The notes beneath the pieces are model-generated. The model saw only the letters and a list, made by a program, of their open reading frames with translations, did no database searches and was not told where the DNA came from. A DNA stretch of 64,000 nt from a virus: positions 1 through 64,000 of IMG/VR virus record IMGVR_UViG_3300045988_093513, one strand, 5' to 3'. Of the stretch, positions 3,136 to 63,999 are shown piece by piece. A program made the position numbers and the translations under genes. Every line of letters starts with the position of its first letter. The stretch's first letter is position 1.

Positions 3136-3253
3136 TAAATAGTGAGCCTATTGAGTGTGGGTAACTAAGTGTGTAACGATGTTACCCATACTAATAGCCC
3201 CATTATTTAGTAGGGGTAGTATTAGTTGCTACTGGACAAAGTAGCAGAAAGAG

Positions 3254-4324: not shown

Positions 4325-4341
4325 CAAGAAAGGAGAATAAC

Positions 4342-9812: not shown

Positions 9813-10225
9813 ACGTCCTCCAGATACTGTCTCATTCCTTTGCCATACTTACCACTGAGTAAGTCGCATCTAATGTCTTTAATCCACTTATCGTACTCTT
9901 TAGTGCACGGTTTATTTAATCGCTCCTGCCAATCCGGATACCTTTCTTTAACCATTGAGATGAACATGTCCAACATGTCCTGCTCCTCTTGTTCGATTAA
10001 AGTTTCTTCTATGCTAGGTGTACACGGCTCCTTACACCTGTAATTCATGGGCATCTTGTTGAACATCTTGAGGGCGATTCGTGTTTCACCGTATGCCCAC
10101 TGTCGTTCGTTAAGTCTAGTGATTCTTCTGATAGATGAACATACCCCTTTGTCGTTCAGCTTACCAGCTCGGTACTCCTCTATCATGCGATTCATAAACT
10201 TAACTGTATTAGGCCCCTTCGCCAC
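9776..10225 (-). CDS. Hypothetical protein (149 aa)
   Basis: ORF in the operon. No motif recognised. Confidence 0.4.
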   Translation of the reverse strand: MAKGPNTVKFMNRMIEEYRAGKLNDKGVCSSIRRITRLNERQWAYGETRIALKMFNKMPMNYRCKEPCTPSIEETLIEQEEQDMLDMFISMVKERYPDWQERLNKPCTKEYDKWIKDIRCDLLSGKYGKGMRQYLEDVWLRKKKLFKRH

Positions 10226-10237
10226 TCACATCACCTC

Positions 10238-13244: not shown

Positions 13245-13480
13245 TCTGTTCCTACCTTCTTTCCTACTCTATCAGTTCTACCCTTGTGTCTAGGGTTACG
13301 TCCAAATCTAAATGCATGCAGTGGACATTTCACGTTAGGGCACTTGGCTACTTCATTCCTATCATAGCATGCACAGTCAAGACAGTTCAGTCTAATGGCT
13401 TTGAGTGGCGTTAGCTTACCACTCGCAATTTTCTGTAACATATTTGCTCTTCCTGCTTCTTCCTTGCTCATCCTAGCCAT
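13241..13480 (-). CDS. Small Cys-rich, putatively zinc-binding protein
   Basis: CLDCACYDRNEVAKCPNVKCPLH cysteine cluster. Confidence 0.4.
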   Translation of the reverse strand: MARMSKEEAGRANMLQKIASGKLTPLKAIRLNCLDCACYDRNEVAKCPNVKCPLHAFRFGRNPRHKGRTDRVGKKVGTE

Positions 13481-13489
13481 TCAAATCAC

Positions 13490-13900
13490 CTATTCCTTTT
13501 CTACTTCGTATCTAGGTACTCCACGATTAAACGCTACGTTATTCTTCATATCAAAATATACTCTGTTCAAAAACTTAATTGCAGCTTCGAGCAGTCTAAT
13601 GGCATACTGTACTTCAGCTACCTTTTTCCATGCCTCCTGGCATTCTGTATCTGTAAGTGTATGCCTATCTCCTACTGCAACTTTGTCACTATACTCTGCC
13701 GACTTCTCAGCCGTCAATGCCTTTGCTTTCTGTTCTGTGAACGCAAGCTCTTTATACATCCATGCAACCTTACTATCGAAAGTTTCCATCAGTTTGGATG
13801 CAGTAACCATCAGGCGATACGCACTAGCTGGGTCATTATCCTGCACGGTAGGGTATCTTTCTTTCACGGCGTTATACTGTTTCAGAAGTTCATCTTCCAT
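13490..13900 (-). CDS. Hypothetical protein (136 aa)
   Basis: ORF in a co-directional operon. Confidence 0.4.
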   Translation of the reverse strand: MEDELLKQYNAVKERYPTVQDNDPASAYRLMVTASKLMETFDSKVAWMYKELAFTEQKAKALTAEKSAEYSDKVAVGDRHTLTDTECQEAWKKVAEVQYAIRLLEAAIKFLNRVYFDMKNNVAFNRGVPRYEVEKE

Positions 13901-36979: not shown

Positions 36980-38455
36980 TTAAAAGAATCTATTAACAAT
37001 TTGTCCTTGTGATACCATGTTTTCTGTCGCGTTCATAGAGTTCTGTACATCACCTAATGTCACGGGTTTTCCATCCGCAGTAGTGCCAACAATTGTGTTA
37101 GTGAACGTATCAAGCAGCCCTTGGTTTACATTGTTCTGTGCGTCTTGGTCTGCTGGGTTTGTACCAGCTGGATGTGACATCTCCTCAGACTGAGAAATAA
37201 TTGACGCGGCGATGTTATCAATCAGCTCATTAGCTGTACCTCTTCTACCAGTCTGTTCCATCATCATGCCATAGTCCGCTATCTTCTTTAATGCGGACTG
37301 TGTGGCGAGGTTACGAGCTTCGGTAGTAGAGCTTGGGTCCCAGATAATATTCTGAGCCTGTTTGAACTCTGGACTATTTACTAACTTATCAACATTGTTT
37401 TTGATACTATCCTCGTCTTCCACTACATACCCAAGAGGAGAACCGCTGCTGCCAGCAGAAGCAGTACCACCTTTTCCTTTACTATAAGAACCGCCATTAT
37501 TTTGTATGATTGCTAGCTTCGCTTTTGCCAATTCAAATTCTCTATCCTTATTTGCTTGTTCCTGTGCTGCTTTATACGCATTATTGTTAAGTGTCATCTG
37601 TTGTCCAATCATTGCACCAAGGTCTGCCAGCTTCTTACTATTCGGGTCAAACTGTACGCCAGTAAGAGCTGCACCAAGTTTAGCAAGAATGGCAATGTTA
37701 GCGGTGTTGTTACTCTTTGCAATTTGGTCAGCGAACTGCGCGGCCATTGTTTTTTGCATGTTCTTGTTATCGATGGTGGCACCAGTATGAGTAGTATCGG
37801 CAGACATCTTGTTAATCAAATCGAAGAAACGCTGGTTGCGATTGTGAGCGCCCATAGCTGCCGCTGTAATTTCTGGAGCCTGTCTACCTAAATAATCGTT
37901 GAGGATTCTACGCTCTGGGTTGATGGTCGGCTGGTTCACCATTTTGTTGATGAAATCCATTGGCAGTTGTTCATTCGGGTCGTTGAACTTACCGCCAGAT
38001 TTGATGTAAGCGCCAATCAGATTTGTCTGATAAGGAGAGCCATTACTAGAAATAGAGTTTGGATTTGCACCAAGCATATTCATTACATCCGACGTGTATT
38101 GGTCAATAGATGTTCCATTACCATCAGTGAAATCTCCATTACCAACGTTGCCTTCGCCACCAAGCCACGCTTGTACGGCCCCCTTGACACCATATTTGCC
38201 AATCAAATCTCCCATGTATGCTCGCGCTACTGCCTCTTGGTTTGATGGAGACCAGTCTGTACCATCAAGACCATGTTGTTCCGCAGCTCCTTCAAACGTA
38301 GATGGCATAAACTGGTACTTACCACGAGCACCAGAGTCAGCAATAACGTTATATGGGTCTTCTTCGCCGCCAGATTCTCTCTGGGCAATAGCTTGAAGCA
38401 CCGAATCAACAACGTTGTATTGCTGTCCTTCGTTAAAGAAATCTGTAGCTGCCAT
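36980..38455 (-). CDS. Lytic transglycosylase (SLT-domain) virion protein
   Basis: AQRESGG...GARGKYQFMPSTF motif (E-S...GLMQ-type) near the N-terminus. Gly/Asn-rich remainder. Confidence 0.6.
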   Translation of the reverse strand: MAATDFFNEGQQYNVVDSVLQAIAQRESGGEEDPYNVIADSGARGKYQFMPSTFEGAAEQHGLDGTDWSPSNQEAVARAYMGDLIGKYGVKGAVQAWLGGEGNVGNGDFTDGNGTSIDQYTSDVMNMLGANPNSISSNGSPYQTNLIGAYIKSGGKFNDPNEQLPMDFINKMVNQPTINPERRILNDYLGRQAPEITAAAMGAHNRNQRFFDLINKMSADTTHTGATIDNKNMQKTMAAQFADQIAKSNNTANIAILAKLGAALTGVQFDPNSKKLADLGAMIGQQMTLNNNAYKAAQEQANKDREFELAKAKLAIIQNNGGSYSKGKGGTASAGSSGSPLGYVVEDEDSIKNNVDKLVNSPEFKQAQNIIWDPSSTTEARNLATQSALKKIADYGMMMEQTGRRGTANELIDNIAASIISQSEEMSHPAGTNPADQDAQNNVNQGLLDTFTNTIVGTTADGKPVTLGDVQNSMNATENMVSQGQIVNRFF

Positions 38456-45525: not shown

Positions 45526-45981
45526 TTAGATGGTTGCTACGTACTGTTTGAACAGTTTGCCTTCTGGCATATCTGGGTCATCCCAATAGAGGGCTTTAGC
45601 TACTGCGATATACTTTTCTGGGTCTTTGCCTAAGACGTTAGAGAGGTCACTATACAGCATGTTAATCGCGTAATACAAATCCGCAGGATGTTCAATGTTA
45701 CGTTTCTTCGCTTCCTCCTCCACTTCTGCAAACGTCCAGTGCGGGCCAGTAGTACCATCAACGTTCTCCATGTGGGCTACCGCTTTGATGGCGATATCGT
45801 TATCAAAGTACGGGCCGCAATCCAGTTCGTGCAGTTTAAGCAGTAGATGTTTTGCCTTCGGGTCTGCGGTTTCCAAAGTAAGACTATCCAAGTATTCACA
45901 GATAGCATTATGCAATTCGCGAGTCTTCGTACCGTCCAAGGCGTCCGAAGACATGTCAAGATATTTCCTAGCAGTAAGCAT
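45526..45981 (-). CDS. Hypothetical protein (151 aa)
   Basis: ORF. Confidence 0.4.
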   Translation of the reverse strand: MLTARKYLDMSSDALDGTKTRELHNAICEYLDSLTLETADPKAKHLLLKLHELDCGPYFDNDIAIKAVAHMENVDGTTGPHWTFAEVEEEAKKRNIEHPADLYYAINMLYSDLSNVLGKDPEKYIAVAKALYWDDPDMPEGKLFKQYVATI

Positions 45982-48276: not shown

Positions 48277-49787
48277 TAAATTTTCCTTTCAGCAAACAGT
48301 AAGTCAATGTCATCGTTAGTCGCGACATTGTTTGTGATATCATCAACATACTTAATAATAGTAGAGTTGTTCTGAACAACTTTATTGTCAGTGTAACTAG
48401 TGGCACGGGTATACCCTTCAATGTCACCCGTCTCTCTATTCTGAACTTCGGTGTCCAACCTATCAGACAACGCCGTATCGGAAGCCTGTAGATTATCAAC
48501 CTGTGTTCTGATGTTGGCGTTAATCTCATCGTCAGATGCCTTACGAGTGTTAATCTCGCTAGTAAGGTTACTGGAGAGTTCGCCAATCTTTTTGGTGACA
48601 TTAGCGGCTACGTTAGCATCGTTGCCAAGAGCGTCAGCTAGTTCCTTCAAGGTGTCAAGTGCTTCTGGGGCACCGCCTACCAGACTAGCAACCTTCTGGT
48701 CTGTATACAGTTTAGCAGTAGACAGAGACTCGGCAACTTTATCAGATACCTGAGCAGAAGTGTCTGCACCCATCTCAGCCAGAGTGATATCTTTCTCCGT
48801 GTTGTCGAGATACAGTACATGTAATGCACCTTTAGTTTCACCCGTCAGTTCCTTCGGTGGGTTCTGCAGGTTGTTCAACTTAGATGCCAAATCGTTAGCA
48901 GTGTTTGTTGCAGTTGTAACAGCTGCATCAACTCTCTTGGCATCAGCCTTGGCGTTTTCCATGTACGCTTCTGTGGTCTTCTCAGATTCTTTCGCAGCTT
49001 TCTGCGAAGCACTAGCGGCGTTCATGTAGTCCTGAGTGTTCTGTTCGGAAGCCTGAGCCCTACGCAGCAGTTCTGCCACGTCGTTCTTCATGTTGGACAC
49101 GTCCGTCTCGTTATCCTTGATACCCTTCAAAGTATCAATGGCTTCCTGCACTTTCTTCTTGGAGTACAAAGCCCAAGAGCGAGAGGATTGCGTTAGTCCA
49201 GTAGGAGATTCAAAGTCTGGCTCTCTGTCTGGGGTTGTTTCAGATACCGCCCATGCCTCAGCTTTATTGACACTGCGTTCGATATCAACCATTGCATCGT
49301 CATGCGCAGTCTTGATTTGTTCAAGAGAGTAGGTACGCACCTTATGAATTTTATCTTCAGCGTCACGTTCCCACTGGTCGATATTAGCTTTAGCCTGTGT
49401 CAGCAAAGAGTTGAATGTACTGGTCATGTACGTCATCTTTTCAGAGACCAGCGTGTTGATAGTGTTTACACCAGACGTACTAGCACTCTGTGTATCCTGT
49501 AGTGCTTGCTGTGCCTTCTCCGCATTTGTCTTTGTGGAGGCTTCGAGTTTCGTTACGTTCGCTTCAGAGGCTTGAATCTTTTTATAAGTAGAGTCAATGC
49601 CATCCTTGATGGAAGTAACGTCACCAAGTGCGGCACCAGCGTCCTGCGTCTTACCGTCATCATACGTAACGATAAGATGGGCTTGTTTATCTAATGCTAC
49701 ACTGGAGATACCGATACCACGTTCCCCTTTCTGTCCGTAACGTAACGTTACTTTGACAGGAGAACTGGATACAGTTACATGATTCAC
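48276..49787 (-). CDS. Coiled-coil tail fibre / needle-like structural protein (503 aa)
   Basis: Long alpha-helical, heptad-rich sequence. Start overlaps the upstream gene's stop. Confidence 0.4.
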   Translation of the reverse strand: MNHVTVSSSPVKVTLRYGQKGERGIGISSVALDKQAHLIVTYDDGKTQDAGAALGDVTSIKDGIDSTYKKIQASEANVTKLEASTKTNAEKAQQALQDTQSASTSGVNTINTLVSEKMTYMTSTFNSLLTQAKANIDQWERDAEDKIHKVRTYSLEQIKTAHDDAMVDIERSVNKAEAWAVSETTPDREPDFESPTGLTQSSRSWALYSKKKVQEAIDTLKGIKDNETDVSNMKNDVAELLRRAQASEQNTQDYMNAASASQKAAKESEKTTEAYMENAKADAKRVDAAVTTATNTANDLASKLNNLQNPPKELTGETKGALHVLYLDNTEKDITLAEMGADTSAQVSDKVAESLSTAKLYTDQKVASLVGGAPEALDTLKELADALGNDANVAANVTKKIGELSSNLTSEINTRKASDDEINANIRTQVDNLQASDTALSDRLDTEVQNRETGDIEGYTRATSYTDNKVVQNNSTIIKYVDDITNNVATNDDIDLLFAERKI

Positions 49788-50188
49788 ATGCTACCTCCTT
49801 GAGAAATACCTGGGGAAATGAATGCTTTACCGTTACAGATTCGTTTAACGTCGTGTCCGTCAAACATATTAACGTCCCAATAAAGCTCTTCCCATTCTTT
49901 ATAAGAATTACCACCAGTATCAATGGAAGCAGTTTCTTCCGCACTCAGTGATAAATTAACAATACCATTTTTAGGGTCTACATCTACCTGATGCATCTTT
50001 GCAATAACCGTGGTATCCTCGGCTGACGCTTTTACACTAGCGTAAAACTTGTAATCACTAATATCAATAGGTGTATCCTTTTCTCCCTCAAGGAGTTCAA
50101 ACTGAATATCAAAGTCTGCCCCCTGAGCGATAACGATATCAACTACTGGTACTAGCGGTGTTGCATTGTCACAGTTATGTCTGAGCAT
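49784..50188 (-). CDS. Hypothetical protein (134 aa), Ig-like composition
   Basis: ORF. Confidence 0.35.
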   Translation of the reverse strand: MLRHNCDNATPLVPVVDIVIAQGADFDIQFELLEGEKDTPIDISDYKFYASVKASAEDTTVIAKMHQVDVDPKNGIVNLSLSAEETASIDTGGNSYKEWEELYWDVNMFDGHDVKRICNGKAFISPGISQGGSM

Positions 50189-51123
50189 TGTTCACCTCCA
50201 TAATTTTTATACAAAGTGTCTATCACTCCTCCGTAATAGGCGCGTACAATCGGGCATCTACGTAAGGTTGCTTCGTCAGACATTAACGAGCATCCACCGC
50301 CACAGAACCTAAGCATATCGCATTTTGCACACATGCCCTGCTGTCTTTTAATTGTCTTATCCCATTCGCGAGAATATTCGCTTGGCTTACTCTCGTCATG
50401 GCAATTATACAAACTCCCATCTAGGTCTATATTGATAACTGTAGTTCCGTTACCGCACTTGTTGCCATAATCATATTGCCCTGTTAGTTGATACAGAGTT
50501 GAGAATATCATCGATGCTTCTGGTACTGTTGCCGTACCGTTAATGAACCTTTCTGTACAGGTACACATGTCTTTGTACAACTGGTCAACATCGACTTCCT
50601 CGAACTCCAACTGACTACTCGTAAAATTCAGAGGGAAATCAAAGTTCAAGCTAAACTCTTTATCTGGTAACAGCTCGCTTACGCGATTGATTACATCATG
50701 TACGACCGTCCATTTTGTTAGCACTGCCGAGATGCATAAGTTGTCAACGTCTTTAATGTTTGGGTTCTCTTGAAGAACATCGTATCCTCTGGTTTTCTTA
50801 CTAATTGGTCCATCCCAAGATACAGTTACACCGACATCATACTTATTCAGCCATTCTACTTTATCTTTATCTAGTAACTTACCGTTCGTTATAATGCCGT
50901 AACATAAATCAGAACGGTGAGACATGATTTCTTTAATGGCACCAAAGTACAACAGAGGCTCCCCGCCAAAAAATACGACAGGTGTTTTCGGCGGTATGGA
51001 ATGGAAGTATTCCCAGAACCTTGGTTTAATAGCTCTCGGGATTTGTCTTTCTTTAATCTGTCTCTGACAACAGTATGTACATTGTAAGTTGCAATCATTC
51101 CCTAGAATTACGAACAGTTTCAT
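50152..51123 (-). CDS. Radical SAM enzyme with a C-terminal SPASM domain
   Basis: CNLQCTYC (CxxxCxxC), GGEPLL and ITNG motifs. C-terminal CAKCDMLRFCGGGC (Cx2Cx5Cx3C). Confidence 0.65.
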   Translation of the reverse strand: MKLFVILGNDCNLQCTYCCQRQIKERQIPRAIKPRFWEYFHSIPPKTPVVFFGGEPLLYFGAIKEIMSHRSDLCYGIITNGKLLDKDKVEWLNKYDVGVTVSWDGPISKKTRGYDVLQENPNIKDVDNLCISAVLTKWTVVHDVINRVSELLPDKEFSLNFDFPLNFTSSQLEFEEVDVDQLYKDMCTCTERFINGTATVPEASMIFSTLYQLTGQYDYGNKCGNGTTVINIDLDGSLYNCHDESKPSEYSREWDKTIKRQQGMCAKCDMLRFCGGGCSLMSDEATLRRCPIVRAYYGGVIDTLYKNYGGEQCSDITVTMQHR

Positions 51124-52270
51124 ACGTCTTACCTACGCAAGCTGTAACAACTTCGCCACCCTGAATATTAAGGACGGTACGAATCAAATCCATGATATAA
51201 TCTGTTGCAAACAAGAACGTTACCGCTTCCAGTGGAATACCAACGGCTGCAAAAATAATTGCACAATCCATGAGCGTCCCGCCGATAATACCTGGAGCAC
51301 ACATCAAAGCTACAGTGGTTAATAACAATACCGTTACAATCGCCGCTACGCTTAGAGGTACTCCAAAGATGGATGAGGCGTACATAACATATACACCCAC
51401 GCAGACACACGAACCGACACGCATCAATACAGAAACGATAGGGGTGAGGTAATCAATCACTTCATGTGGAATGTCTGTATCTTTTTTCAATAATACGATA
51501 CGATTTCCGATAGTATTGGATGCGCCACCAGCAATAGCGTTAGCAACGTCCTCTACAAAGATAGCTCTCAGGAACGATGCCCCATCTACTTTGTGCAAGT
51601 AAAGGACGGGAAGTGACGCAAGTAAAGTAAACAATACAACCCCAACAATCAGTGTACCAAACATGCATACATAACTCTGTAATACGCCAAGACCAAATTT
51701 AACCACAACAGGGTACAGCAATGCGAATACTCCAACAGGTGCGATATACATGATGCAGTTAGCAATTTTCAGAAAGACGTGCTGGATAATACCAAGGGCG
51801 TGTGCGATAGAACTCTTATATGCACTTGTCCGCCCAACTAAACCTACCATGATTGCTAACGTTACAATCTGTAACATGTTACCCGTCGCAAACGAGTGAA
51901 CAATATTGACAGGGATACAGCCGTTGATGAACGACAGCACTGTAGGAGCCTGTACAGCGACCGTATTTGTTGCGGTTACGACAAACGTAGGTACACCAAT
52001 TACCCACGTTAATCCTAACCCTAACGCGACACCAATTACACTCAAGCCAAACATTAAGATAAAGGCGTGTACCGATACCTTTTGTCCATCATGCATATCG
52101 ATAATCGCTTTCGCGATAGACGCAAATGCTAACGGAACAACACACACCTTGAGTAACGACGTAAACATAGTGCCCAATTCTTTGAGGGGGTACTGTAACC
52201 ACGCGACATCTCCAAACACAAGCCCTAAACAAAGTGCTAACGCAATAGAGATTGCAATATTCCTATACAT
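51095..52270 (-). CDS. Sodium:dicarboxylate/amino-acid symporter (SDF, GltP/GltT-like) family membrane protein
   Basis: About 8 TM plus re-entrant segments. Motifs KVCVVPLAFASIAKAI, YIAPVGVFALL and DLIRTVLNIQGGEVVTACV match SDF signatures. Confidence 0.5.
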   Translation of the reverse strand: MYRNIAISIALALCLGLVFGDVAWLQYPLKELGTMFTSLLKVCVVPLAFASIAKAIIDMHDGQKVSVHAFILMFGLSVIGVALGLGLTWVIGVPTFVVTATNTVAVQAPTVLSFINGCIPVNIVHSFATGNMLQIVTLAIMVGLVGRTSAYKSSIAHALGIIQHVFLKIANCIMYIAPVGVFALLYPVVVKFGLGVLQSYVCMFGTLIVGVVLFTLLASLPVLYLHKVDGASFLRAIFVEDVANAIAGGASNTIGNRIVLLKKDTDIPHEVIDYLTPIVSVLMRVGSCVCVGVYVMYASSIFGVPLSVAAIVTVLLLTTVALMCAPGIIGGTLMDCAIIFAAVGIPLEAVTFLFATDYIMDLIRTVLNIQGGEVVTACVGKTYETVRNSRE

Positions 52271-52278
52271 GTATCCTC

Positions 52279-53265
52279 CTATAAATCTAACGCTTGCGCA
52301 ACGTCACTCCACAATAACTTTGGGTTTTCGAGCCCAATAGAAAGTCTAGCACAGAACCCTTGCGGATACCGTTCCTTACTTCTGAAGAAATCAGCGATAG
52401 AGTAAGTGCACCCGAAAGTTCCAACAGTCTTAAACTGTTTCAATCGCTTGCAGAACTCTTCTGTTTTTCCTGGTAGTGTAATTAAGCCACCACATCCAGG
52501 CCACAAGCAATCTACACCAGCTTCCTTGAGATTATCATAAATGTATGCTGCGCCATCTGTGTGCATAATCATTCTGCACGCCAATGTCTGCAACCCACGA
52601 CTAACCATGTACGCTTTATCTGGAGATACGCAGTTACCACGATGGGCGATAACCCACGACAAGTTATCCTGTCCTGGGTTTGCGAGTGGAACTGGCTTCT
52701 GTTCTAACCATCGCATGGTATCGGCAAAACATAAACCACCTGCCACTACATCGCCATAACCGCACACATATTTAGTATAAGACTCAATACATACATCGGC
52801 TCCATTCTTAATTGGATTCGAGTAATGGAGAGACACGATTGAGTTGTCTACCGCCAAGATACCGTTATAACGATGAGTTGTATCCGCCAGTGTTTGTACG
52901 TCATACCACTTAGCAAATGTTGTTGGGTTATCAATGATTACTAACACAGTTCCTTTAGAGGTGGCTAGAACGATTTCTAGGTCAGGCAACTGACCGACAT
53001 CTTTTAATTGAACGGTATTGATATTCTTATAGTGCAACCAATCACGTGTTTCAAAATATGTTTCGTCGTCGACAATAACTACATCTGGTTGCAAAATATC
53101 TAGGAGGGTTACAATAGCCTCCTGACCACTGTTACACAAAACTGTACGCCATCCTCCATAGAGTTTTGTCAGTTCCTCTTCCACCTGCCTAATAGGCATG
53201 TTGTGTGTTCTTACATATCGTCCAGTATTGTCACTAACGACGTTCATGTCAATAGTTGGTAACAT
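52279..53265 (-). CDS. PLP-dependent enzyme of the Cys/Met-metabolism (cystathionine gamma-synthase/lyase) family
   Basis: LCNSGQEAI and ESYTKYVCGYGDVVAG (SxTKY..GH.D-like PLP-lysine motif). Confidence 0.5.
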   Translation of the reverse strand: MLPTIDMNVVSDNTGRYVRTHNMPIRQVEEELTKLYGGWRTVLCNSGQEAIVTLLDILQPDVVIVDDETYFETRDWLHYKNINTVQLKDVGQLPDLEIVLATSKGTVLVIIDNPTTFAKWYDVQTLADTTHRYNGILAVDNSIVSLHYSNPIKNGADVCIESYTKYVCGYGDVVAGGLCFADTMRWLEQKPVPLANPGQDNLSWVIAHRGNCVSPDKAYMVSRGLQTLACRMIMHTDGAAYIYDNLKEAGVDCLWPGCGGLITLPGKTEEFCKRLKQFKTVGTFGCTYSIADFFRSKERYPQGFCARLSIGLENPKLLWSDVAQALDL

Positions 53266-53273
53266 ACATTCTC

Positions 53274-54236
53274 CTATTCAATTCCATAATCGGCTTTGTC
53301 TACTTTGTCAAAGTTGGGGTAGTTGTCAAGTAATGCATTAAACCATTTCTCTAGTTTGTTTGTAGTAGTTGTCGACAAATAAAACTCCTCGGCATGACCA
53401 CTAGCGTTAGACGTGAATCTTCCACTATACAACTGCCCGCTACCCCATACAAATATGGTATACAATGTAGCATACTTCTCATTAACTGTACGTAAATATT
53501 GTTTTATTTGATAATTAACATACGCTCTGGGCATGTACTTTTTGAAGGTATCGCCATAGCGCATTTTAATTTCACAGTTCGAGCAAACACCACATTGCTG
53601 TGGTAATGTTGTACAGCATGTTCTACACAGCGGGATTAAATCATCATACCCCCATTCGTGCAACGCCTGTAGCTCGTCGATAGCATTGATATGTACCATA
53701 CAGAATTTCATGTTACCGAATATGGTATACATATCTTTGTTCCCGTCTTTGTCTAATGTAAGTGTACCGTCATCTGCAATTTTGATGCCATAACTTGTAA
53801 TGGCTTCCTCCGTCTTGCCGATGTTGTTTGACCTGGTGTTTGGAGGCGGTGCCTCTATCCCAATCATAATACCTGGATATCGTTTTGCAAGTTTACCAAG
53901 TGAACGATACATATAATGTTTAGAAAGAATATCTTCGCTATACATGTGCTCATATGCACTTTCAAACTCCGCGTCTTGTGGAATATCTTCCTCTTTAATT
54001 TGAATCGGTTTTAGAATTGTGGCGGTGATACCGTCCTCTGCACGTATGAGTGGTAGCAAGTTGTTCTGCGCACTCATTTCTAGGTCTGCTGCTCCTCTTT
54101 CGCTTGTCTCTGGGAAAATAATATACACAGGTTGTATTTGTTCCGCAGTGTTTCTCGCCGTTTTACATAGCAGATAAGTACTGTCTAACCCACCTGACCA
54201 ATATATATATTGCATTATAACCTCCTCAACAGTCAC
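53274..54236 (-). CDS. QueC-like PP-loop ATPase (7-cyano-7-deazaguanine synthase family)
   Basis: N-terminal YIYWSGGLDSTYLL (SGGxDS PP-loop). C-terminal CRTCCTTLPQQCGVCSNC matches the QueC CGVCxxC zinc motif. Confidence 0.55.
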   Translation of the reverse strand: MTVEEVIMQYIYWSGGLDSTYLLCKTARNTAEQIQPVYIIFPETSERGAADLEMSAQNNLLPLIRAEDGITATILKPIQIKEEDIPQDAEFESAYEHMYSEDILSKHYMYRSLGKLAKRYPGIMIGIEAPPPNTRSNNIGKTEEAITSYGIKIADDGTLTLDKDGNKDMYTIFGNMKFCMVHINAIDELQALHEWGYDDLIPLCRTCCTTLPQQCGVCSNCEIKMRYGDTFKKYMPRAYVNYQIKQYLRTVNEKYATLYTIFVWGSGQLYSGRFTSNASGHAEEFYLSTTTTNKLEKWFNALLDNYPNFDKVDKADYGIE

Positions 54237-56184
54237 AATTGCAGTTTATAAAACCAGTAACAGTGCTATGTGTTGCGCCCAAGGAGAATGTAACGGATTT
54301 TCTTAACAATGTGTTAATAATATCTTGAAGCGTATATGTTCCGTTCTGAAACATAGGAGTAACATCCAGTTGATTCCACGCTACCCCGCGACTGAGTCCG
54401 TCAGGGTGTCTATTATCACTGCGAAAATTAGCAGTAATAACATACCCTGGATTGGTCTGCCCGTCTAGTGTATATGGAGCTCCCAGACCTCCACTACCAT
54501 AGACCGCACCATTTACATTCAAATCCCCATTGATAGTAACACCATTATTAAAACTAGTAGCACCAGCAAAATACGCGCTACCGTTTTCATTGTCAATCCA
54601 TGCTTTGTTTTCTTTTCCAACGCCATTAAAGTATGTCCTTTTACCCCTTAACACAAGACCATAAGTTTCTGAGCCGTTATCCTGCCACGTTTCTTTTCCA
54701 ACACTTGGGTTTTCTGTGGTGCTATCATTGACCGTAAACACGATTTTGTTTGCGTTAATCTCTCCAGTTGTACTAATTGTGCCATTACTAATAATACGGT
54801 TCGCTGTAATCATACCGTCAGCCCCATCTGTCGGGGACATGTTCATGTATGTTAGCGTACTAACATCAGCCGTCCCTAACGTAGCATCAACTGCATTGAC
54901 AGTGTCAGCAGTGAAGTCACGGATAGAACCGCTATCTGCACTCAACTCTTTTGCTTTAATTCGATTAGACTCTACGGCATCGGCTACGATAGTGTCGTTG
55001 ATAGTAAGAGAGTCTACCTCGATAGTATCACTATGTAAAGACTTTGTGTTAATCTCGTTAGTAGTAATATCTTTGCTTGTTATCCTATTACTATGAATAT
55101 CTATGAACGTATTTAAGTCAGAATGCCGTGGATTACTTACATCAACAGCTACGGAAGTAGAGTGATTGGACTCACCAATACAGTCGAAGTACGTTAAACT
55201 AATAGTGTCGTGTTCTTTCGTTGTGTAATAGGTGAAGGAATGTTGGGTATTATCAACTGTAAACTTCACATTATTAACATAGATATTAGTACCAAGTCCA
55301 TACGTAGGAGCTTTGAACTCAACTATAATTTTGTACTGGTCTTCGTTATCGTTAGTATCAACTTTTACCGTCGGAGCTTCTGGTGTGGTTAGCTGGGGGA
55401 ACGAGTAAGCAGACTCGAGAGACGTAGAATATTTCTCGCTAATACCGAAGTTCGCTGCATAGATTGTCCCGTTACGCTCTTTAGGTACATACAAGTAAGA
55501 CTTGCCACGAGACCTAGTTAGTAACCCGTCATCAACGCCGAAGTTATTATTACCATCACGTAACTCTGTGTACGTGTAGAAAGCGTTTGGCTGCTGTGTC
55601 CATTCGATTAGAAGACCTTTTGCAGTCGCTGCAGTGGTCAACGACGCTGGCGGTGTCGTATCTCTAACTTGTACTGGAATGAATGTAATGGCACTAGGTG
55701 CTTTACTTTCCTCAGAACGTTTACCATCATCGGTCACACCGATGGCTACAACTCTATAACGATAGCCTGGCAATACGTTAGGAATCGTAGCGGTCAGTGC
55801 GCCATCCTTTGACTGGTAGATACGTGACCCCACCTGATTCCAATTTACGGATGCGTTACCCTTCTGAGGAGCTTGCTGGAGATTTAACAGAGCGTATTTA
55901 TAGACACGAGCTTCGTTAAAGCTACCAGTTTCCCACGTAACCGTAAGGTTATAATAGTCTCCAGATTTCTCGTAAGTTATTTTAACGTTCGATAATTGGT
56001 TACTGATGGTAGTTACAGTGGTTCCATCTCCACCGCCACCACTTCCGCTACCTGTACCTGCATACGTTGCGATATAATTTAACGACTTGCGCACAGCATC
56101 GGCAAACTTACGACCATCACCTTGGGAGTCTGTTGGAATAGCGGCTACAAGGCGAGCCGCTTTCTTGTTAAAGTCCGTTGCCAT
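54226..56184 (-). CDS. Tail fibre / receptor-binding-like protein (652 aa) with FN3-like segments
   Basis: Gly-rich linker, beta-rich repeats and a Cys-rich C-terminus. Confidence 0.4.
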   Translation of the reverse strand: MATDFNKKAARLVAAIPTDSQGDGRKFADAVRKSLNYIATYAGTGSGSGGGGDGTTVTTISNQLSNVKITYEKSGDYYNLTVTWETGSFNEARVYKYALLNLQQAPQKGNASVNWNQVGSRIYQSKDGALTATIPNVLPGYRYRVVAIGVTDDGKRSEESKAPSAITFIPVQVRDTTPPASLTTAATAKGLLIEWTQQPNAFYTYTELRDGNNNFGVDDGLLTRSRGKSYLYVPKERNGTIYAANFGISEKYSTSLESAYSFPQLTTPEAPTVKVDTNDNEDQYKIIVEFKAPTYGLGTNIYVNNVKFTVDNTQHSFTYYTTKEHDTISLTYFDCIGESNHSTSVAVDVSNPRHSDLNTFIDIHSNRITSKDITTNEINTKSLHSDTIEVDSLTINDTIVADAVESNRIKAKELSADSGSIRDFTADTVNAVDATLGTADVSTLTYMNMSPTDGADGMITANRIISNGTISTTGEINANKIVFTVNDSTTENPSVGKETWQDNGSETYGLVLRGKRTYFNGVGKENKAWIDNENGSAYFAGATSFNNGVTINGDLNVNGAVYGSGGLGAPYTLDGQTNPGYVITANFRSDNRHPDGLSRGVAWNQLDVTPMFQNGTYTLQDIINTLLRKSVTFSLGATHSTVTGFINCNCDC

Positions 56185-58094: not shown

Positions 58095-59057
58095 TTACGG
58101 CGCAACGGTTGGAGTAATAGTCTCCACGACAACTGGTTTCGGGTTAACCTTACCAGTCAGGTTCTTAATACGAGCGTTAGCATTCGGTGCGGTACATTCG
58201 ATAGATGCTACGCCAGTGATTACCTTTTCCTTATAAGTACCGACTCTCGGCGGTTCTTCAGTATGGAACGGAATAAGGTAGCCAAGTTTCCAATACTGCG
58301 GGTCGAGCAGGTCAACCACATCGTCAGAGTACATACGATGGGCTTCCAGACGAAGAGAACCAAAGTCAGTCTCGATGATTTCGAGAGAGGTGGTGATACT
58401 CTTGTCACCTGCCTGGCGAATCGGCAGTGCACCCTGAGTAAAGTCGGCGCATCCACGCTTATTACGTGCGGACATAATAGCGACGGACGGGTCGCCACCA
58501 CGCTGCCAGGTCAGCTGCATTGCGTCATTCAGAAGGTCGAAAGTAAGGTTGCCCTTAGCAACGTCCTTCGCTGCGTCAATGCAGTTCTGGAATGTGATGG
58601 AGCCCATCTTAGTTTCTTTAACTTTACCTTCACCGCTGGAAACACCATGACCATTTGCGTCATACTTGACGGAGTTCATAGCGCCTTCCGGAGTGTCATA
58701 CAGATAGAACGTATTAGCGTCCTTAACTGCTACGTAGTAGGCAACGTTTTCTTTACATACAGCACCACCACGAACGATGAGGGCATCGCCGTTTACAAAG
58801 CCGTGGTCGTTCAGAGTGAACTCACCAAAAGCTACGGTTACACCTTTCAGTTCATCTTCAAGGAAGTACGGAATACCACCAAAAGTACCAGCAACGTTTT
58901 CAGACATCGGGGTTGCAGTGGTGTTGTTTACGATAGCATATTCAAGGTCACCTGCGATTTCCTTGCCAGCCTTAACGAACTGGTACGCTACTTCGTCACG
59001 AACACCGTACTTTTTGATAGCCTGAGTGATATCAGAGATGTTATCGTTTGTGTTAAC
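58095..59057 (-). CDS. Major capsid protein, 3' exon (HK97-fold-like)
   Basis: The frame is open from 59057 (after an in-frame TGA at 59058-60) to the stop. The sequence is capsid-like and the position is portal-scaffold-capsid. The listed ORF from the first ATG (58907) is a truncation artefact. Confidence 0.5.
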   Translation of the reverse strand, partial: VNTNDNISDITQAIKKYGVRDEVAYQFVKAGKEIAGDLEYAIVNNTTATPMSENVAGTFGGIPYFLEDELKGVTVAFGEFTLNDHGFVNGDALIVRGGAVCKENVAYYVAVKDANTFYLYDTPEGAMNSVKYDANGHGVSSGEGKVKETKMGSITFQNCIDAAKDVAKGNLTFDLLNDAMQLTWQRGGDPSVAIMSARNKRGCADFTQGALPIRQAGDKSITTSLEIIETDFGSLRLEAHRMYSDDVVDLLDPQYWKLGYLIPFHTEEPPRVGTYKEKVITGVASIECTAPNANARIKNLTGKVNPKPVVVETITPTVAP

Positions 59058-59810
59058 TCATACTTTCATATGAGACCAGACTATATTATACTTAATCGGT
59101 GTTATCGTATAGTCGTTGGGATTTCATACGCTTTTCACAGTAATTATTTAACCTTTTCTGTTTACGTAAAATATTGAACTTTAGTCCAGATTCTATAAAT
59201 GACTTTAGGTTCATAGTGAAACTCAGTTGTACTTTGTTTTTGGTTCGTATTTCTCTTGTCTTACCACACGATACACCAAAGGATTGTAGCATCCTTTTTA
59301 TATCGTATGTCCAAGAGTATGTAGTTCCGTACCCCATCATCCAATTTGTATTACCATTTGGATTGGCACGCTGTGAGACCCAACCATCAGAATCAAGTAC
59401 ACCTTCTAAAAATTCTTTCTTTAACTCTTTGTCCCATTGATACACATAGTCTGGGATGTATCTACATCCAGCTGTGTCATCAACGAATATCTTAAATTCT
59501 TTAGAACATACTTGAAGATAGTATTTGTTAGTCCCTACCCTTTGGTGGACTTTCACATCTCTATTGATAAAACGTGATAAGTAATCAGCAACTTTACCAA
59601 TAAACTCTTTATCAATACATTCAAATGAGTATGCGTACGTGTTCCCTCTTTTGAAAACACTAGCATCTCCAAAGTAACAACCAAGTAAATAAGCGTATGT
59701 CTTATCTGCGGGTTTCCTATTCATAATACATATCCTTTCTATTTTTACACTTTGGTAAGAAGGGCTTTAAGGGTTTCCTGCATATGGATAACTTTTATAT
59801 GGGCAAACAT
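59058..59810 (-). mobile_element. Intervening element in the capsid gene. Probably a group I intron carrying a LAGLIDADG homing endonuclease.
   Basis: A 750-nt insertion between two in-phase capsid ORF halves. It contains a free-standing LAGLIDADG ORF in a different frame with its own RBS. Confidence 0.45.
59092..59724 (-). CDS. LAGLIDADG homing endonuclease
   Basis: Two LAGLIDADG motifs: AYLLGCYFGDASV and EFLEGVLDSDGWVS. RBS AAAGGATATG. Confidence 0.7.
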   Translation of the reverse strand: MNRKPADKTYAYLLGCYFGDASVFKRGNTYAYSFECIDKEFIGKVADYLSRFINRDVKVHQRVGTNKYYLQVCSKEFKIFVDDTAGCRYIPDYVYQWDKELKKEFLEGVLDSDGWVSQRANPNGNTNWMMGYGTTYSWTYDIKRMLQSFGVSCGKTREIRTKNKVQLSFTMNLKSFIESGLKFNILRKQKRLNNYCEKRMKSQRLYDNTD

Positions 59811-60119
59811 TTACCCATGCATGAACTGCTGAACAGTGTTGTACATCCAACGTCTCGGCACGGTTTCCGTGGTATCGAAGTTGATAACTTCAGGATGCTT
59901 GTTCACCATTGCCGGACGGAGAGAATCTCTCAGCCATTCATGTTTAGTGGATACTACGGTAGTTTTACCGAACATCTGTGTAAGTTTAGTTTTATCTGGG
60001 TCGAGGTTGGTAATGAAGTCAGACATATCTCTAACAGTACCAACGACGTTATAAGAGCGAAGGGCAGAACCTTTATTATGCGGGGCTGCTGCACCTGTAG
60101 CTGGCATACCTACTGCCAT
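59811..60119 (-). CDS. Major capsid protein, 5' exon (N-terminal about 100 aa)
   Basis: Same frame phase as the 3' exon. Terminated by a TAA that I infer lies inside the intron. Confidence 0.45.
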   Translation of the reverse strand: MAVGMPATGAAAPHNKGSALRSYNVVGTVRDMSDFITNLDPDKTKLTQMFGKTTVVSTKHEWLRDSLRPAMVNKHPEVINFDTTETVPRRWMYNTVQQFMHG

Positions 60120-61726: not shown

Positions 61727-62563
61727 CTACCTATTATTCTGGTTGTATGCACGCAATGCATTAAATCCACGGATAAGTGGGTCGTGTTCATCGTGATATG
61801 CAGACGGGTTTGCATCCCTGTATGTCTGAGCATCAAGCTGATAATAGTCAGCAGGGCTAGGCTGTGCATAAGCGTTATCCATAGCGTAGTAGTCTGCTAC
61901 GGAATTACCTGGCATATCGAAGCCTTCAGAAGAACCAGTGGAACCAGAGTCATCTGGTACACCAAGCGCCATAGCATCCTGAGCAGCTGCCGGTCCATAG
62001 TTCTGCCGCATAGCAGCTTCATACTCCATCTGCTTACGAAGTTTTTCTCTTTCATACGCTTCATACTGAGCCTGTGTATGGTCGATACCACCATTGTTTA
62101 CAAGGTATTCATGCATACCCCAGTTCATCGGTGTCTTATCACGGTTAGCAATTTGTTCGTCTGTCCATCCTGCGTCTTTCATAAGCTGAATACCTCTATC
62201 GTTGATAGTATCGCCAGTATTAGCATATGTCAGCGGTGCATTAGGTGTACCAGAAGGTAAATTACGTGTAGCAAATTCATAAGAACCGGCCTTAGGTGTC
62301 GGCTTCAGCTGACTACCGTTATCGATAGCTGCCTGCCCACGGTTAGCGGACCGTACCCAAGCGTTACTATCATCACGGGTCGGTGCCATAAACCTATTAC
62401 GAATACGTTCACGCTCTTTGTCATATTCAGACATGGGAGCGTTTTCCTGTGCAGTTGGCGTACTGCCATGAATCTGATTGTAAACATCTGTGAGAGCTTT
62501 AGCTGCTTCATATCTTTGAACATCCGCCTGTCGAGGGATACTCCTCGTATACTTAATTGCCAT
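61727..62563 (-). CDS. Hypothetical head-assembly protein (278 aa)
   Basis: ORF with an AGGAGG RBS. Confidence 0.45.
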   Translation of the reverse strand: MAIKYTRSIPRQADVQRYEAAKALTDVYNQIHGSTPTAQENAPMSEYDKERERIRNRFMAPTRDDSNAWVRSANRGQAAIDNGSQLKPTPKAGSYEFATRNLPSGTPNAPLTYANTGDTINDRGIQLMKDAGWTDEQIANRDKTPMNWGMHEYLVNNGGIDHTQAQYEAYEREKLRKQMEYEAAMRQNYGPAAAQDAMALGVPDDSGSTGSSEGFDMPGNSVADYYAMDNAYAQPSPADYYQLDAQTYRDANPSAYHDEHDPLIRGFNALRAYNQNNR

Positions 62564-63999
62564 TAATAACCTCCTACTCCATTAGTCGGTTCAGCAGGTG
62601 CGCCATTAGGAACCCTATTATCGGCTGGCTGCTGACCAATTTGTTTGTCTGGAGAGAGGGCGTCACTACCTTGTCGCACAGTAGAAGTGACCGCTCCTCC
62701 TGCTCCTTGTGGTGCAGATACATTCTGCATAGGAACCGTACTCTGACCAGTGTTGTTTGTATTTGTTGGTAACGTATGATTCAAGAATACTACCTGCACA
62801 TAGGGGGGGAGTGAGTAGAGAACCTGAATCGGTAACGAGCCATACTGGAAGTAGTAAGCCACAACATCAGGGGGGAGAGTCTGAAGTGTTGCCTGAATGA
62901 TTTGTGCTTCAAGCATAGTACGCTGTTGCGCAACAACAGGGTCAGTAATATAGTCACCTGTATTTTTAATACCCATATTTTCCATCCAACGTTTCGTGAT
63001 GTTATAAATGTTATGTGGAGTTGCAACCGCAACACCAGTAGCGTTTACTTGCATGATAGCAGTCATGAGCGTCTGAAGCTGGGTATTCATAGCTTCTTTA
63101 CTCTGGATGGAGAGACCAGCGTTTACAACCAGATCGAAAGAGCCAGACAAGTCATCTGGTTTGATTTCCATTGGTTCCCCTGTTAATCGAATAACAGTGT
63201 TTTGGTCAATAAACTTTTGGTTCAAAGATATAAGAAAACGATATAGTTCATATACACCCGTTTCAGCAAACATACGAGCAATAAGTTCCAGTCGCTGATT
63301 AGATGCATTCATGATGGTATTGATACCGCTTGCTGTGTTATGTGTTACGGTATAGTGTTTGCCTACGCAGAACTGACCATCTTCGGCATCAACAGTTAAA
63401 CACCGCATTGGAATAATATCGGTCGGTTCGATTAATACTATTTTAACCCTATCAACACTACGTTTAGACTGTACATACTTGTTTGCTTTTCGGCTTAATC
63501 TAAATGGATTATCGAGGCAACTAATAGTTAAATGCCAATATGTACGACCTTCTTTAGCTAACTTGCCAGGGAATTGCTCTGACTTAGAATAATTCCAGCC
63601 AAAGGAACAAATCAAGCGTTCTACATCGTCCAATAACTGCCCGTTTGCTTGAGAGAAAATAGCCAACGAACCAGAATGGTGACAACCATCAGTGTCCATA
63701 AGTCCACGAAGAAGTTCCATACGCTGTCTATAAGAAGCACTAAAGAAAATCTCCGGTATGTGTTTACAGTTATCTTTCATGTCGTCGTATCTTGCATCGC
63801 GGGCAATGTGTAGTTTTCTAAGGATGGTGTGCAAGTCTGTGCCAACTATGTCATACGTAATAGCCTTTCCTGCGTTTTGGTGTGAAGACGGTCTGATAAA
63901 ACCACCTCTGAACTTTGCCCATTCGGACATGGCGTCCACTATTTCTTTATCCATTGAGGTAAAGCGATTGGTGTGTAAGCAGCCGTCGCCCAAGAACAC
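62563..63999 (-). CDS. Intein-containing packaging/structural protein (portal or large-terminase-like). The 5' part is outside the window.
   Basis: The ORF runs to the window edge. The N-terminal 221 aa seen are the C-terminal part of an intein. The remainder is the C-extein. Confidence 0.55.
   Translation of the reverse strand: MFLGDGCLHTNRFTSMDKEIVDAMSEWAKFRGGFIRPSSHQNAGKAITYDIVGTDLHTILRKLHIARDARYDDMKDNCKHIPEIFFSASYRQRMELLRGLMDTDGCHHSGSLAIFSQANGQLLDDVERLICSFGWNYSKSEQFPGKLAKEGRTYWHLTISCLDNPFRLSRKANKYVQSKRSVDRVKIVLIEPTDIIPMRCLTVDAEDGQFCVGKHYTVTHNTASGINTIMNASNQRLELIARMFAETGVYELYRFLISLNQKFIDQNTVIRLTGEPMEIKPDDLSGSFDLVVNAGLSIQSKEAMNTQLQTLMTAIMQVNATGVAVATPHNIYNITKRWMENMGIKNTGDYITDPVVAQQRTMLEAQIIQATLQTLPPDVVAYYFQYGSLPIQVLYSLPPYVQVVFLNHTLPTNTNNTGQSTVPMQNVSAPQGAGGAVTSTVRQGSDALSPDKQIGQQPADNRVPNGAPAEPTNGVGGY
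63337..63999 (-). mobile_element. Intein (partial) with a LAGLIDADG homing-endonuclease domain
   Basis: Blocks FLGDGCLH and LRGLMDTDGCH (LAGLIDADG x2). C-terminal splicing block LTVDAEDGQFCVGKHYTVTHN followed by the +1 Thr. Confidence 0.65.

Follow-up and report, generated by a model that had tools for sequence, protein, structure and literature searches.

The stretch of viral DNA analysed here (positions 1 to 64,000 of the IMG/VR record IMGVR_UViG_3300045988_093513; hereafter the window) carries, among its tail genes, a four-gene cassette that encodes a QueC-like PP-loop ATPase, a pyridoxal 5′-phosphate (PLP) enzyme, an SDF-family membrane carrier and a radical S-adenosylmethionine (rSAM) enzyme with a SPASM domain. 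The gene directly upstream encodes a tail-associated protein that ends in an alternating run of Cys with Asn or Asp (Cys-Asx) residues. We propose, with a probability of about 70% on the strength of sequence comparison, that the cassette matures this C-terminal run. Most likely, the window cassette is one variant of a widespread and apparently undescribed phage system.

A tail-gene operon with a Cys-Asx C terminus

An earlier note on the window had picked out the four genes and named their families. The list of open reading frames (ORFs) places all four on the minus strand, and profile searches of each ORF confirm their coordinates, their adjacency among tail genes and the assigned families (rSAM/SPASM, SDF, Cys/Met-family PLP enzyme and QueC-like PP-loop protein), three of them outright. 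The start of the PP-loop gene is corrected here to the ATG at 54215, which is preceded by GGAGG directly after the TGA of the tail gene; the resulting length agrees with that of the homologues (310–313 aa). The C terminus of the upstream tail gene, which the earlier note had overlooked, belongs to the feature. The elements of the locus are as follows.

54226–56184, minus strand: tail-associated structural protein, 652 aa, the proposed substrate; placed by gene order between the SU10-type adaptor genes and the cassette
54292–54342, minus strand: conserved segment GTYTLQDIINTLLRKSV, residues 615–631 of the tail protein, a candidate leader-like recognition element suggested by similar segments elsewhere
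54229–54246, minus strand: C-terminal run N-C-N-C-D-C, residues 647–652, the proposed modification site, read from the ORF translation
53274–54215, minus strand: QueC-like PP-loop ATPase, 313 aa from the ATG at 54215 (listed ORF 53274–54236)
52279–53265, minus strand: Cys/Met-metabolism-family PLP enzyme, 328 aa (PF01053, E 3e-34)
51095–52270, minus strand: SDF/DAACS-family membrane carrier, 391 aa (PF00375, E 5e-51)
50152–51123, minus strand: rSAM/SPASM enzyme, 323 aa, the proposed core maturase (Pfam and NCBIfam matches)
49784–50188, minus strand: LtfC-like tail-fibre assembly protein, 134 aa (PF23926, E 3e-6; PHROG 3304, 'L-shaped tail fiber protein assembly')

The island is a tight late operon, in which the stop codon of the tail gene, the GGAGG and the ATG of the PP-loop gene follow one another and the island genes overlap or are separated by 8–10 nt. 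No terminator-like site was found inside the cassette, and the sole strong one in the window lies after the capsid gene. The cassette has a GC content of 0.39–0.44, the same as the rest of the window. Upstream stands the 652-aa tail protein, and downstream the LtfC-like protein and PHROG tail-fibre proteins; the LtfC-like gene marks the downstream boundary of the cassette and is given as context.

The 652-aa protein ends with ...TGFINCNCDC and contains four Cys in all, three of them within the last five residues. It belongs to no Pfam or PHROG family and has no homologue among GenBank phages, and it is the only real ORF in the window with a C.C.C terminus. Orthologues occur at the same position in L001, L003, L005, L015, L016, L054 and L136. 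A word-indexed homology search with the last 150 residues (54229–54678) gave no match, although orthologues sit on contigs of the same collection.

Co-occurrence across phage lineages

Relatives of the cassette were drawn from metagenomes, IMG/VR and bacterial assemblies, and hidden Markov models built from confirmed cassettes were run over 133 sequences. The four families, singled out as a set in the earlier note, occur together in 12 phage lineages, where the cassette is conserved at 33–99% identity. The rSAM, PLP and SDF genes accompany every orthologous PP-loop gene, with the sole exception of L008, whose contig ends there. At every cassette locus, in 12 of 12 lineages, an adjacent ORF has a terminal alternating Cys-Asn/Asp run, such as ...DCDCDCNC, ...DCNCDCSD, ...NCNCNCDCSD, ...NCDCNCNCDCD or ...NCNCNCDNTC. 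All 23 C.C.C-terminated ORFs of the cassette loci adjoin the cassette, and no such terminus occurs among 2,317 long ORFs of the 111 control loci.

The phage backbones that carry the cassette are diverse, including SU10-like podophages, a myophage (with sheath initiator, PAAR and wedge proteins), siphophage-like phages and a prophage whose contig also bears bacterial genes. Across these backbones the cassette keeps a constant position, past the tail genes and ahead of the lysis genes. A host-derived insertion, raised as a possibility in the earlier note, finds no support in the conservation of the cassette across phage lineages or in its base composition. Among 79 bacterial QueC-like loci the cassette is present in only one, L054, which is a phage contig binned with a Lachnospiraceae metagenome-assembled genome. 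The other 78, used as controls, have no cassette, no SDF gene and no Cys-run tail, and show isolated weak partner matches only (rSAM, 44 bits in L091; PLP, 54–56 bits in L098 and L124). Near-identity and protein searches of GenBank phages gave no match for the whole island or for the PP-loop protein. Because a relative was binned with the Lachnospiraceae genome, and because of a GH25 endolysin and the strong GGAGG Shine–Dalgarno sequence, the host of the window phage may, loosely, be taken to be a gut Firmicute.

Two neighbours of the cassette were also recorded. A DUF7841 protein (window 45526–45981, minus strand; L006 13161–13607; L136 12841–13287) recurs a few genes past the cassette in unrelated backbones, in L006 directly after the SDF gene, and may be merely a common late gene. 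In L012, which has a type A cassette as defined below, the SDF gene is followed immediately by an inserted YafQ/RelB toxin–antitoxin pair of opposite orientation (9677–10226, minus strand).

Exchange of cassette and tail end in a relative

That the tail end and the cassette form one functional unit is argued most strongly by the close relative L136. Around the cassette site its proteins closely follow those of the window, with identities of 97.7% for a 177-aa protein, 81.6% for the adaptor, 97.0% for the LtfC-like protein, 80.6% for the downstream fibre and 77.5% for residues 1–635 of the tail protein. At the site itself, L136 bears not the cassette of the window (type A) but a different one (type B), the SPASM rSAM enzyme of which is only 40% identical to that of the window. 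The alignment of the two tail proteins stops at residue 635 of 652; therefore, the Cys run, within the last ~17 residues, was exchanged together with the enzymes.

A motif-first scan and three cassette types

We scanned IMG/VR for DNA encoding CNCNCDC, for which about 3.5 chance matches are expected by our own estimate, and found the pattern in at least 120 viral contigs. The locus-level analysis of these matches covers 80 contigs. In 54 of the 80 loci the motif stands in frame at the C terminus of a real protein or directly before a Hint domain, and the proteins that bear it come from many unrelated families. In 42 of these 54 loci a homologue of the SPASM rSAM enzyme follows on the same strand, at a median distance of 1.2 kb downstream; eight of the 12 loci that lack it have less than 1.1 kb of sequence left, giving a pairing in 42 of 46 assessable loci. 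The trio of QueC-like, PLP and SDF proteins was present in only two of the 54, both previously known here. Therefore, the constant core of the system is the Cys-Asx tail plus the SPASM rSAM enzyme, around which three accessory sets are found.

Type A, found in the window: a QueC-like protein, a PLP enzyme and an SDF carrier
Type B: a protein of 275 aa, a further rSAM enzyme and a protein of 217 aa, mutually homologous in L133, L134 and L136
Type C: a weak, recurrent match to a 2-oxoglutarate–Fe(II)-oxygenase-like protein, together with a longer rSAM enzyme

SPASM rSAM homologues adjoin Cys-run ORFs in all three types. A domain shared between the 275-aa or 217-aa protein of type B and the PP-loop protein was considered and rejected (hhalign probability 0.1%).

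In the Hint variants (the metagenomic loci L174, L187, L189 and L198, and L257 3664–5106, the last being Achromobacter phage 2-1), the run is followed by a Hint/intein-like domain (CF[AP][AP]GT...). The cultured Achromobacter phage 2-1 has ...RANCNCDCNCS, then CFPAGTMVLMADGT, then a 240-aa protein and then the rSAM enzyme; phage JWF likewise carries the core system in its Hint form. Self-cleavage by the Hint domain would expose the Cys run as the mature C terminus, possibly through a thioester, and one may speculate that the Hint variants offer another way for the run to end in an activated C-terminal acyl group. The rSAM genes of Campylobacter phages of the CP21/CP220 type were considered as cultured examples and ruled out, as no Cys run lies nearby.

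Segments like GTYTLQDIINTLLRKSV precede the Cys run in many type A and type B loci and in one Hint-type locus, for example GTYSIADLIQKLV (L012), GTYTLKAVLQDLI (L135), GTYTLRRILQELV (L133), HLIELRTAFTKLE (L006) and GTYALSTVIQGLV (L189). Separately, many substrates (L133, L134, L135, L012 and L189) have an H-x-H motif (SHTH, AHTH, SHSH or AHLH) 8–20 residues before the run, which recalls the metal-binding His motifs of T4 fibres and is absent from the tail protein of the window.

In three type A lineages paired small ORFs (84–124 aa), which contain CQxCQ repeats and bear the Cys run, separate the rSAM gene from the PP-loop gene. More broadly, small-protein pairs of 84–216 aa (L006 9407–9991, L011 9331–9992, L017 6275–6991 and L133 8809–9830) each have a helical segment in the N-terminal part, between six and ten repeats of the CQxCQ type and a CNCNC-type run at the end, and are encoded between the rSAM gene and the next cassette gene. 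The 84–124-aa proteins resemble precursors of peptides that ribosomes make and that are modified after translation (RiPPs), and the Hint variants demonstrate proteolytic processing within the wider family. The cassette could thus be read as making a free RiPP (a bacteriocin or signal), with the small ORFs of L006, L011 and L017 as the true precursors and the tail end cleaved off. We consider this quite improbable, as in the window and in most type A lineages the only Cys run is formed by the last 6–14 residues of a structural protein of 400–670 aa, the cassette has no protease or exporter, and members of the SDF family are importers. Moreover, Hint cleavage removes the domain after the run and does not release the run, and the position between tail and lysis genes is conserved.

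The rSAM/SPASM enzyme

The rSAM enzyme matches PF04055 (36.0 bits versus a cut-off of 29.5) and the NCBIfam SPASM profile TIGR04085 (30.8 bits versus 27). Its NCBIfam matches are almost all peptide maturases, led by PapB, the TIGR04084 rSAM/SPASM subfamily, CbpB and QhpD, and the best named family is the PapB ranthipeptide maturase (E 1e-21; 77.5 bits versus the cut-off of 340 of the NF047865 equivalog). The closest solved relatives by sequence are RiPP rSAM–SPASM maturases (8vpo, 9gm3 and 5wgg; ChlB and CteB). C11-x3-C15-x2-C18 and FFGGEPL are invariant in the 12 lineages, and the seven-Cys SPASM pattern (C-x17-C with G-x4-C, then C-x2-C-x5-C-x3-C and a final C) is conserved except in the short copy of L001. 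Because the cluster motif begins at residue 11, the enzyme has no room for an N-terminal RiPP recognition element (RRE).

In the L001 copy (13106–13795; the same contig as L014), from an 88%-identical relative, the rSAM ORF stops before the SPASM domain, and the other three cassette genes and the NCNCDC tail are intact; the short rSAM ORF might reflect a frameshift, an error of assembly or decay of the core enzyme.

PapB takes a hydrogen off the carbon that adjoins the carboxylate of an Asp or Glu located at i+1 to i+7 after the donor Cys (PMC12373016). The Cys-run tails (...NCNCDC, ...DCDCDCNC and ...NCNCNCDCSD) satisfy this spacing of donor Cys and acidic acceptor. NxxcB and QhpD extend the thioether precedent to Asn and to protein substrates.

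The QueC-like, PLP and SDF proteins

Catalytic motifs are invariant across the lineages, and all four enzymes look functional on this basis. In the PP-loop protein, the motif W-S/T-G-G-x-D-S-T (of the SGGxDS type) is invariant, as is C200-x7-C208-x2-C211-x2-C214, which aligns with the motif of QueC (3bl5) and differs by one residue of spacing from the canonical C(x)8CxxCxxC. Canonical QueC combines this zinc motif with the signature YxQxHxxE, VPxRN and YPDC (PMC13329287). That signature is missing in the phage family, in which F34 and E46 alone align with YxQxHxxE and the invariant columns hold no equivalents of RN or YPDC; the window protein has no match to Pfam PF06508 either. A family-specific extension of ~90 aa (helix-helix-strand-strand-helix) is present at the C terminus. 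The full-length family is very rare, with ~10 clusters among 1.84 billion representatives, and is not among the clusters of a 2026 survey of the QueC family.

The relatives of the PP-loop protein by structure and sequence include QueC (PHROG 1550, 'QueC-like'), and rSAM and PLP enzymes occur together in thymidine-hypermodification clusters. On these grounds the four genes might make or install a modified nucleobase (7-deazaguanine or a hypermodified thymidine) or a free metabolite, which are among the targets that the earlier note had in view. This is very improbable in the light of the following results. A Pfam search of ORFs of at least 250 aa in the 64-kb window, outside which ~6–10 kb of this genome lies, found no TGT/DpdA, aGPT-Pplase, QueD, QueE or FolE and no thymidine-hypermodification enzyme, kinase or transferase, and the called genes of the related loci contain no QueD, QueE, FolE or TGT/DpdA. 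Canonical QueC substrate motifs are missing, and the rSAM enzyme is of the SPASM peptide-maturase type, not QueE-like. Furthermore, the cassette moves with tail and lysis genes across backbones with differing replication modules, its sole invariant partner is a neighbouring ORF with a Cys-Asn/Asp repeat at its end, and in L136 it was exchanged along with the tail C terminus. Of the undescribed nucleobase, DNA or metabolite modification system proposed in the earlier note, the novelty appears to stand and the target is unsupported.

The PLP enzyme scores 118.6 bits against PF01053 (cut-off 27), with the match starting at about profile position 45, such that ~45 N-terminal residues are missing. 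Its active-site set is complete (Y-x-R, S-G, the Tyr of YFETR, DNS, S-x-T-K and RLSxGLE) and aligns with methionine gamma-lyase 5m3z; RY.R.HN, NSG.EA, YFETR, DNS, ESYTKYV.GYGD (with the Schiff-base Lys) and ARLS.GLE are the invariant motifs. Among PDB entries the closest are methionine gamma-lyases and cystathionine gamma-lyases (E ~5e-18), and the enzyme falls in no named equivalog among CGS, CBL, CGL, MGL and OAH sulfhydrylase (best 100.6 bits versus cut-offs of 440–730). Its gene adjoins the PP-loop gene across an 8-nt gap, and the pair is co-conserved in all type A lineages.

The SDF protein matches PF00375 with 174.3 bits (cut-off 27.9) over profile positions 3–386 of 387, and the family profile finds the aspartate transporter 9bgz (E 1.6e-67) and GltPh (E 7e-41). 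In GltPh, residues of transmembrane helix 8 (TM8) bind the amino group, alpha-carboxylate and side-chain carboxylate of the substrate, and NMDGT and D405 are sodium-site ligands. The equivalents of GltPh D390, D394, R397, T398 and N401 are invariant (D361, R364, T365 and N368 for the last four). In all lineages TM7 has M-R-(A/V)-G-S where GltPh has NMDGT, an invariant Arg occupies the position of Met311, and G372 stands in the place of D405; the serines of helical hairpin 1 (HP1) and the tip of helical hairpin 2 (HP2) are also altered relative to GltPh. This residue pattern suggests that the protein carries an amino acid with an acidic group or a thiolate, and that its ion coupling is altered. 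A cystine importer of the TcyP type was considered and rejected, as no NCBIfam cystine-transporter family matched, the matching families being DctA, GltP and SstT, weakly. Phage SDF transporters are indeed as rare as the earlier note had supposed, with matches in 22 of 50,697 GenBank phage records, many of which also carry ordinary bacterial genes (gltP, dctA and metZ). Searches of GenBank phages with the PLP and SDF proteins gave distant matches only, many of them in records with ordinary bacterial genes.

The nearest characterised relatives of these two proteins are Met/cystathionine lyases or synthases and Asp/Glu carriers, and the core system elsewhere works without the trio. It could accordingly be argued that the PLP enzyme and the carrier are auxiliary metabolic genes for host Cys/Met supply, the QueC-like protein a passenger and the rSAM enzyme alone linked to the tail. 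We give this little credence: in the loci examined, the trio is never apart from one another, from the rSAM gene or from the Cys-tail; the scores lie far under the equivalog cut-offs (~100 bits versus 440–585); and the NMDGT coupling motif of the carrier is lost in every lineage. At the corresponding site L136 has a different enzyme set in place of the whole trio, which fits alternative tailoring steps better than general metabolism. A cysteine-supply role of the PLP and SDF proteins was rejected, as the tail protein of the window has four Cys and the demand would be trivial.

The run itself could also be a metal or iron–sulfur site at the fibre tip, with enzymes that build or load the centre: the PLP protein as a desulfhydrase that gives sulfide, the PP-loop protein as a sulfur transferase, the SDF protein as a cysteine or cystine carrier and the SPASM protein as a cluster handler. 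In a beta-strand the thiols of C-x-C-x-C all point to one side, several loci have H-x-H (SHTH, AHTH or SHSH) just upstream of the run, and T4 fibre proteins have metal-binding His sites. In addition, the neighbours of the PP-loop protein include the [4Fe-4S] sulfur transferases LarE, NcsA and TtuA, and the PLP matches include bifunctional cystathionine gamma-lyase/homocysteine desulfhydrases. However, the Cys motif of the PP-loop protein (C-x7-CxxCxxC) resembles the zinc motif of QueC and not the three-Cys cluster motif of LarE, cassettes B and C serve the same kind of tail without sulfur-mobilising enzymes, and SPASM enzymes with peptide-maturase homology normally modify peptides covalently. 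We consider both the metal site and these enzyme roles unlikely.

Proposed mechanism

In the model that we favour, the late operon would yield the 652-aa tail protein ending in N-C-N-C-D-C, together with the four enzymes encoded directly behind it. In the core step, for which the case is fairly strong, the rSAM/SPASM enzyme would act on the C-terminal Cys-Asn/Asp run, the likeliest reaction being the one that ranthipeptide maturases such as PapB, QhpD and NxxcB perform: a 5′-deoxyadenosyl radical would take hydrogen from the side-chain carbon of an Asp or Asn beside a Cys, and a thioether would form between the Cys sulfur and that carbon. If the tail is matured at all, such Cys-to-Asx side-chain thioethers have somewhat less than an even chance of being the product. 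The outcome would be a rigid tip, resistant to proteases and reduction and cross-linked within or between fibre chains.

The accessory step of type A is speculative, and we hold with low confidence that the trio carries out a second tailoring of the tail segment. The QueC-like ATPase might adenylate an Asp/Asn side chain or the C-terminal carboxylate; an amino acid imported by the SDF protein (Asp, Glu or a cysteine thiolate could fit) might then attack the activated group via its thiol or amine; and the PLP enzyme might cleave the adduct by beta- or gamma-elimination, leaving a sulfur (thioamide or thioacid) or nitrogen substituent. Granted maturation of the tail, sulfur insertion is a tentative suggestion, made because YcfA–YcfC is the only documented pairing of a PP-loop protein with a PLP lyase and because the carrier gains a role, and some reaction outside those named here is equally conceivable. 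Amide or nitrile formation, considered because QueC itself and PesC do such chemistry, is less likely than either, and amino-acid ligation or cross-linking is on a par with it. A bolder version, which we think rather unlikely, places a reactive group at the tip of a receptor-binding protein, where the run would be knotted by thioethers and type A would add an electrophilic or metal-binding group derived from the imported amino acid (an internal Cys-Asx thioester, a thioacid or thioamide, or a nitrile).

Several points weigh against maturation of the tail run as proposed. The case for it rests entirely on association and homology, that is, on the gene content, catalytic motifs, operon structure, co-occurrence and exchange of cassette plus tail end observed here, from which we infer both the tail as substrate and all of the chemistry. 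The scores of the rSAM enzyme lie far under every curated equivalog cut-off and for this reason do not establish its reaction type; formylglycine formation, sactionine links and C–C links are possible alternatives. No cassette protein has a Pfam RRE or PqqD match, and the leader-like segment is absent in L009 and hence not universal. Gene order is the only basis on which the 652-aa protein would be a tail fibre or spike. The roles given to the trio are conjecture. Since a PLP enzyme needs a free alpha-amino group, internal residues are out of its reach; a dedicated carrier is puzzling, because the need for a co-substrate per burst is tiny; and the SDF protein, lacking NMDGT, may be no conventional transporter.

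Significance

To our knowledge, phage tail fibres and receptor-binding proteins are regarded as genetically encoded polypeptides that stay unmodified, except that they may be proteolysed and folded with the help of chaperones. The present system appears to be a dedicated and modular set of enzymes by which the C termini of tail proteins are tailored. Neither tail proteins that end in Cys-Asx and have rSAM maturases of their own nor the QueC-like/PLP/SDF trio turned up in the PMC and bioRxiv literature, as searched for rSAM or RiPP chemistry on phage tail or structural proteins.

For host-range engineering, this would mean that a recombinant fibre expressed without its maturases could be inactive. 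Phage annotation is also concerned, since such genes are now labelled 'metabolic' or 'hypothetical'. For RiPP enzymology, whole structural proteins modified without an RRE would be a new substrate class, and the trio of QueC-like, PLP and carrier proteins would be unprecedented. For phage evolution, enzyme cassettes and the few matching substrate codons are swapped as a unit between near-identical phages. Should the reactive-tip version hold, the tip group could let the fibre bind its receptor covalently or via a metal. A virion protein would then for the first time be seen to undergo RiPP-type tailoring by enzymes, of which at least three sets would be interchangeable, and adsorption would depend on an imported nutrient. 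As the core system occurs in more than 100 uncultured viral contigs and in the cultured Achromobacter phage 2-1, it is testable by mass spectrometry.

Other features of the window

No Pfam family matches a 4,034-aa ORF (24858–36962, minus strand) at E <= 0.001; flanked by the replication module and an SLT-transglycosylase gene (36980–38455), this ORF may encode a giant virion or ejection protein. The gene for the major capsid protein, of SU10 type (58095–60119, minus strand), is split into an N-terminal part (59811–60119) and a C-terminal part (58095–58907), between which lies a LAGLIDADG endonuclease ORF (59092–59724, E 6e-12) that looks like an intron or mobile insertion. The capsid gene is split in L005 in the same arrangement and is intact, with 418 aa, in L003 and L136. 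The portal ORF (62563–63999, minus strand), which runs off the window, has an in-frame LAGLIDADG_3 domain (residues 93–160) upstream of SU10_portal, suggesting an intein; the portal protein of L005 (1,015 aa) has the same LAGLIDADG_3 arrangement.

The early region (2230–6852, plus strand) holds the amidoligase and GATase genes that the earlier note had linked to the cassette. Both are present, as an Amidoligase_2 gene (2230–3135) and a class-II GATase match (3254–4324), the latter weak and under the Pfam cut-off. An 836-aa protein (4342–6852, plus strand) gives a second, weak Amidoligase_2 match. This region is possibly a separate peptide- or metabolite-ligase system. Co-occurrence lends no support to a thematic link with the cassette, as the backbones in which the cassette is found differ widely in type.

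Comparison with known systems

The phage SDF protein shares with GltPh, GltTk and 9bgz a full-length profile match and the substrate-binding residues of TM8. Unlike these transporters, it is encoded inside a tail-gene operon, and its NMDGT, D405, HP1 serines and HP2 tip are changed.

Cap9, of type IV cyclic-oligonucleotide-based antiphage signalling systems (CBASS), and QatC, of QatABCD, resemble the phage proposal in being QueC-family enzymes that act on proteins. They ligate 7-carboxy-7-deazaguanine (CDG) to a protein N terminus, and Cap9 keeps the CDG-binding motifs, whereas the phage PP-loop protein has no CDG motifs, no TGT-like (Cap10) or QatB partner and no deazaguanine pathway, and its presumed target is a C terminus. 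The nitrile synthetase ArtA (PDB 9lei/9leh) is a structural neighbour of the phage PP-loop protein.

PesC, an ATP-dependent PP-loop enzyme of the nitrilobacillin RiPP cluster, turns the carboxylate at the C terminus of its precursor into a nitrile, alongside beta-hydroxylation of Asp (PMC13060819). It differs from the phage protein in being asparagine-synthetase-like, in having MNIO and 2OG-HExxH partners in place of the rSAM, PLP and SDF proteins, and in yielding a free peptide.

YcfA–YcfC, a PP-loop adenylating enzyme and a PLP-dependent C–S lyase, makes the thioamide of 6-thioguanine in its biosynthesis; YcfA has the catalytic residues Asp19, Gln129, Glu134 and Glu183, and free L-cysteine is used (PMC12494993). 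As in the phage cassette, the PP-loop gene is encoded with a gene for a PLP enzyme. The pair differs in its guanine-nucleotide substrate, in the place of YcfC among the cysteine desulfurases (PMC12494993) and in having no transporter and no rSAM enzyme. YcfA is deposited as an 'asparagine synthetase domain-containing protein'.

Ranthipeptide-type maturases (PapB/PapA, QhpD/QhpC, CteB/SCIFF and NxxcB) resemble the phage core in their CxxxCxxC rSAM motif, their seven-Cys SPASM domain and an adjacent Cys-rich substrate with alternating Asp/Asn. In the phage system, by contrast, the substrate is the C terminus of a 400–670-aa virion protein or a small tail-module protein and not a cleaved, exported leader–core peptide, and the enzyme has no RRE, belongs to a late structural operon and is accompanied by other accessory enzymes. 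The families to which the enzymes belong are known, and the core is similar to RiPP maturation; the chemistry of the trio may prove new.

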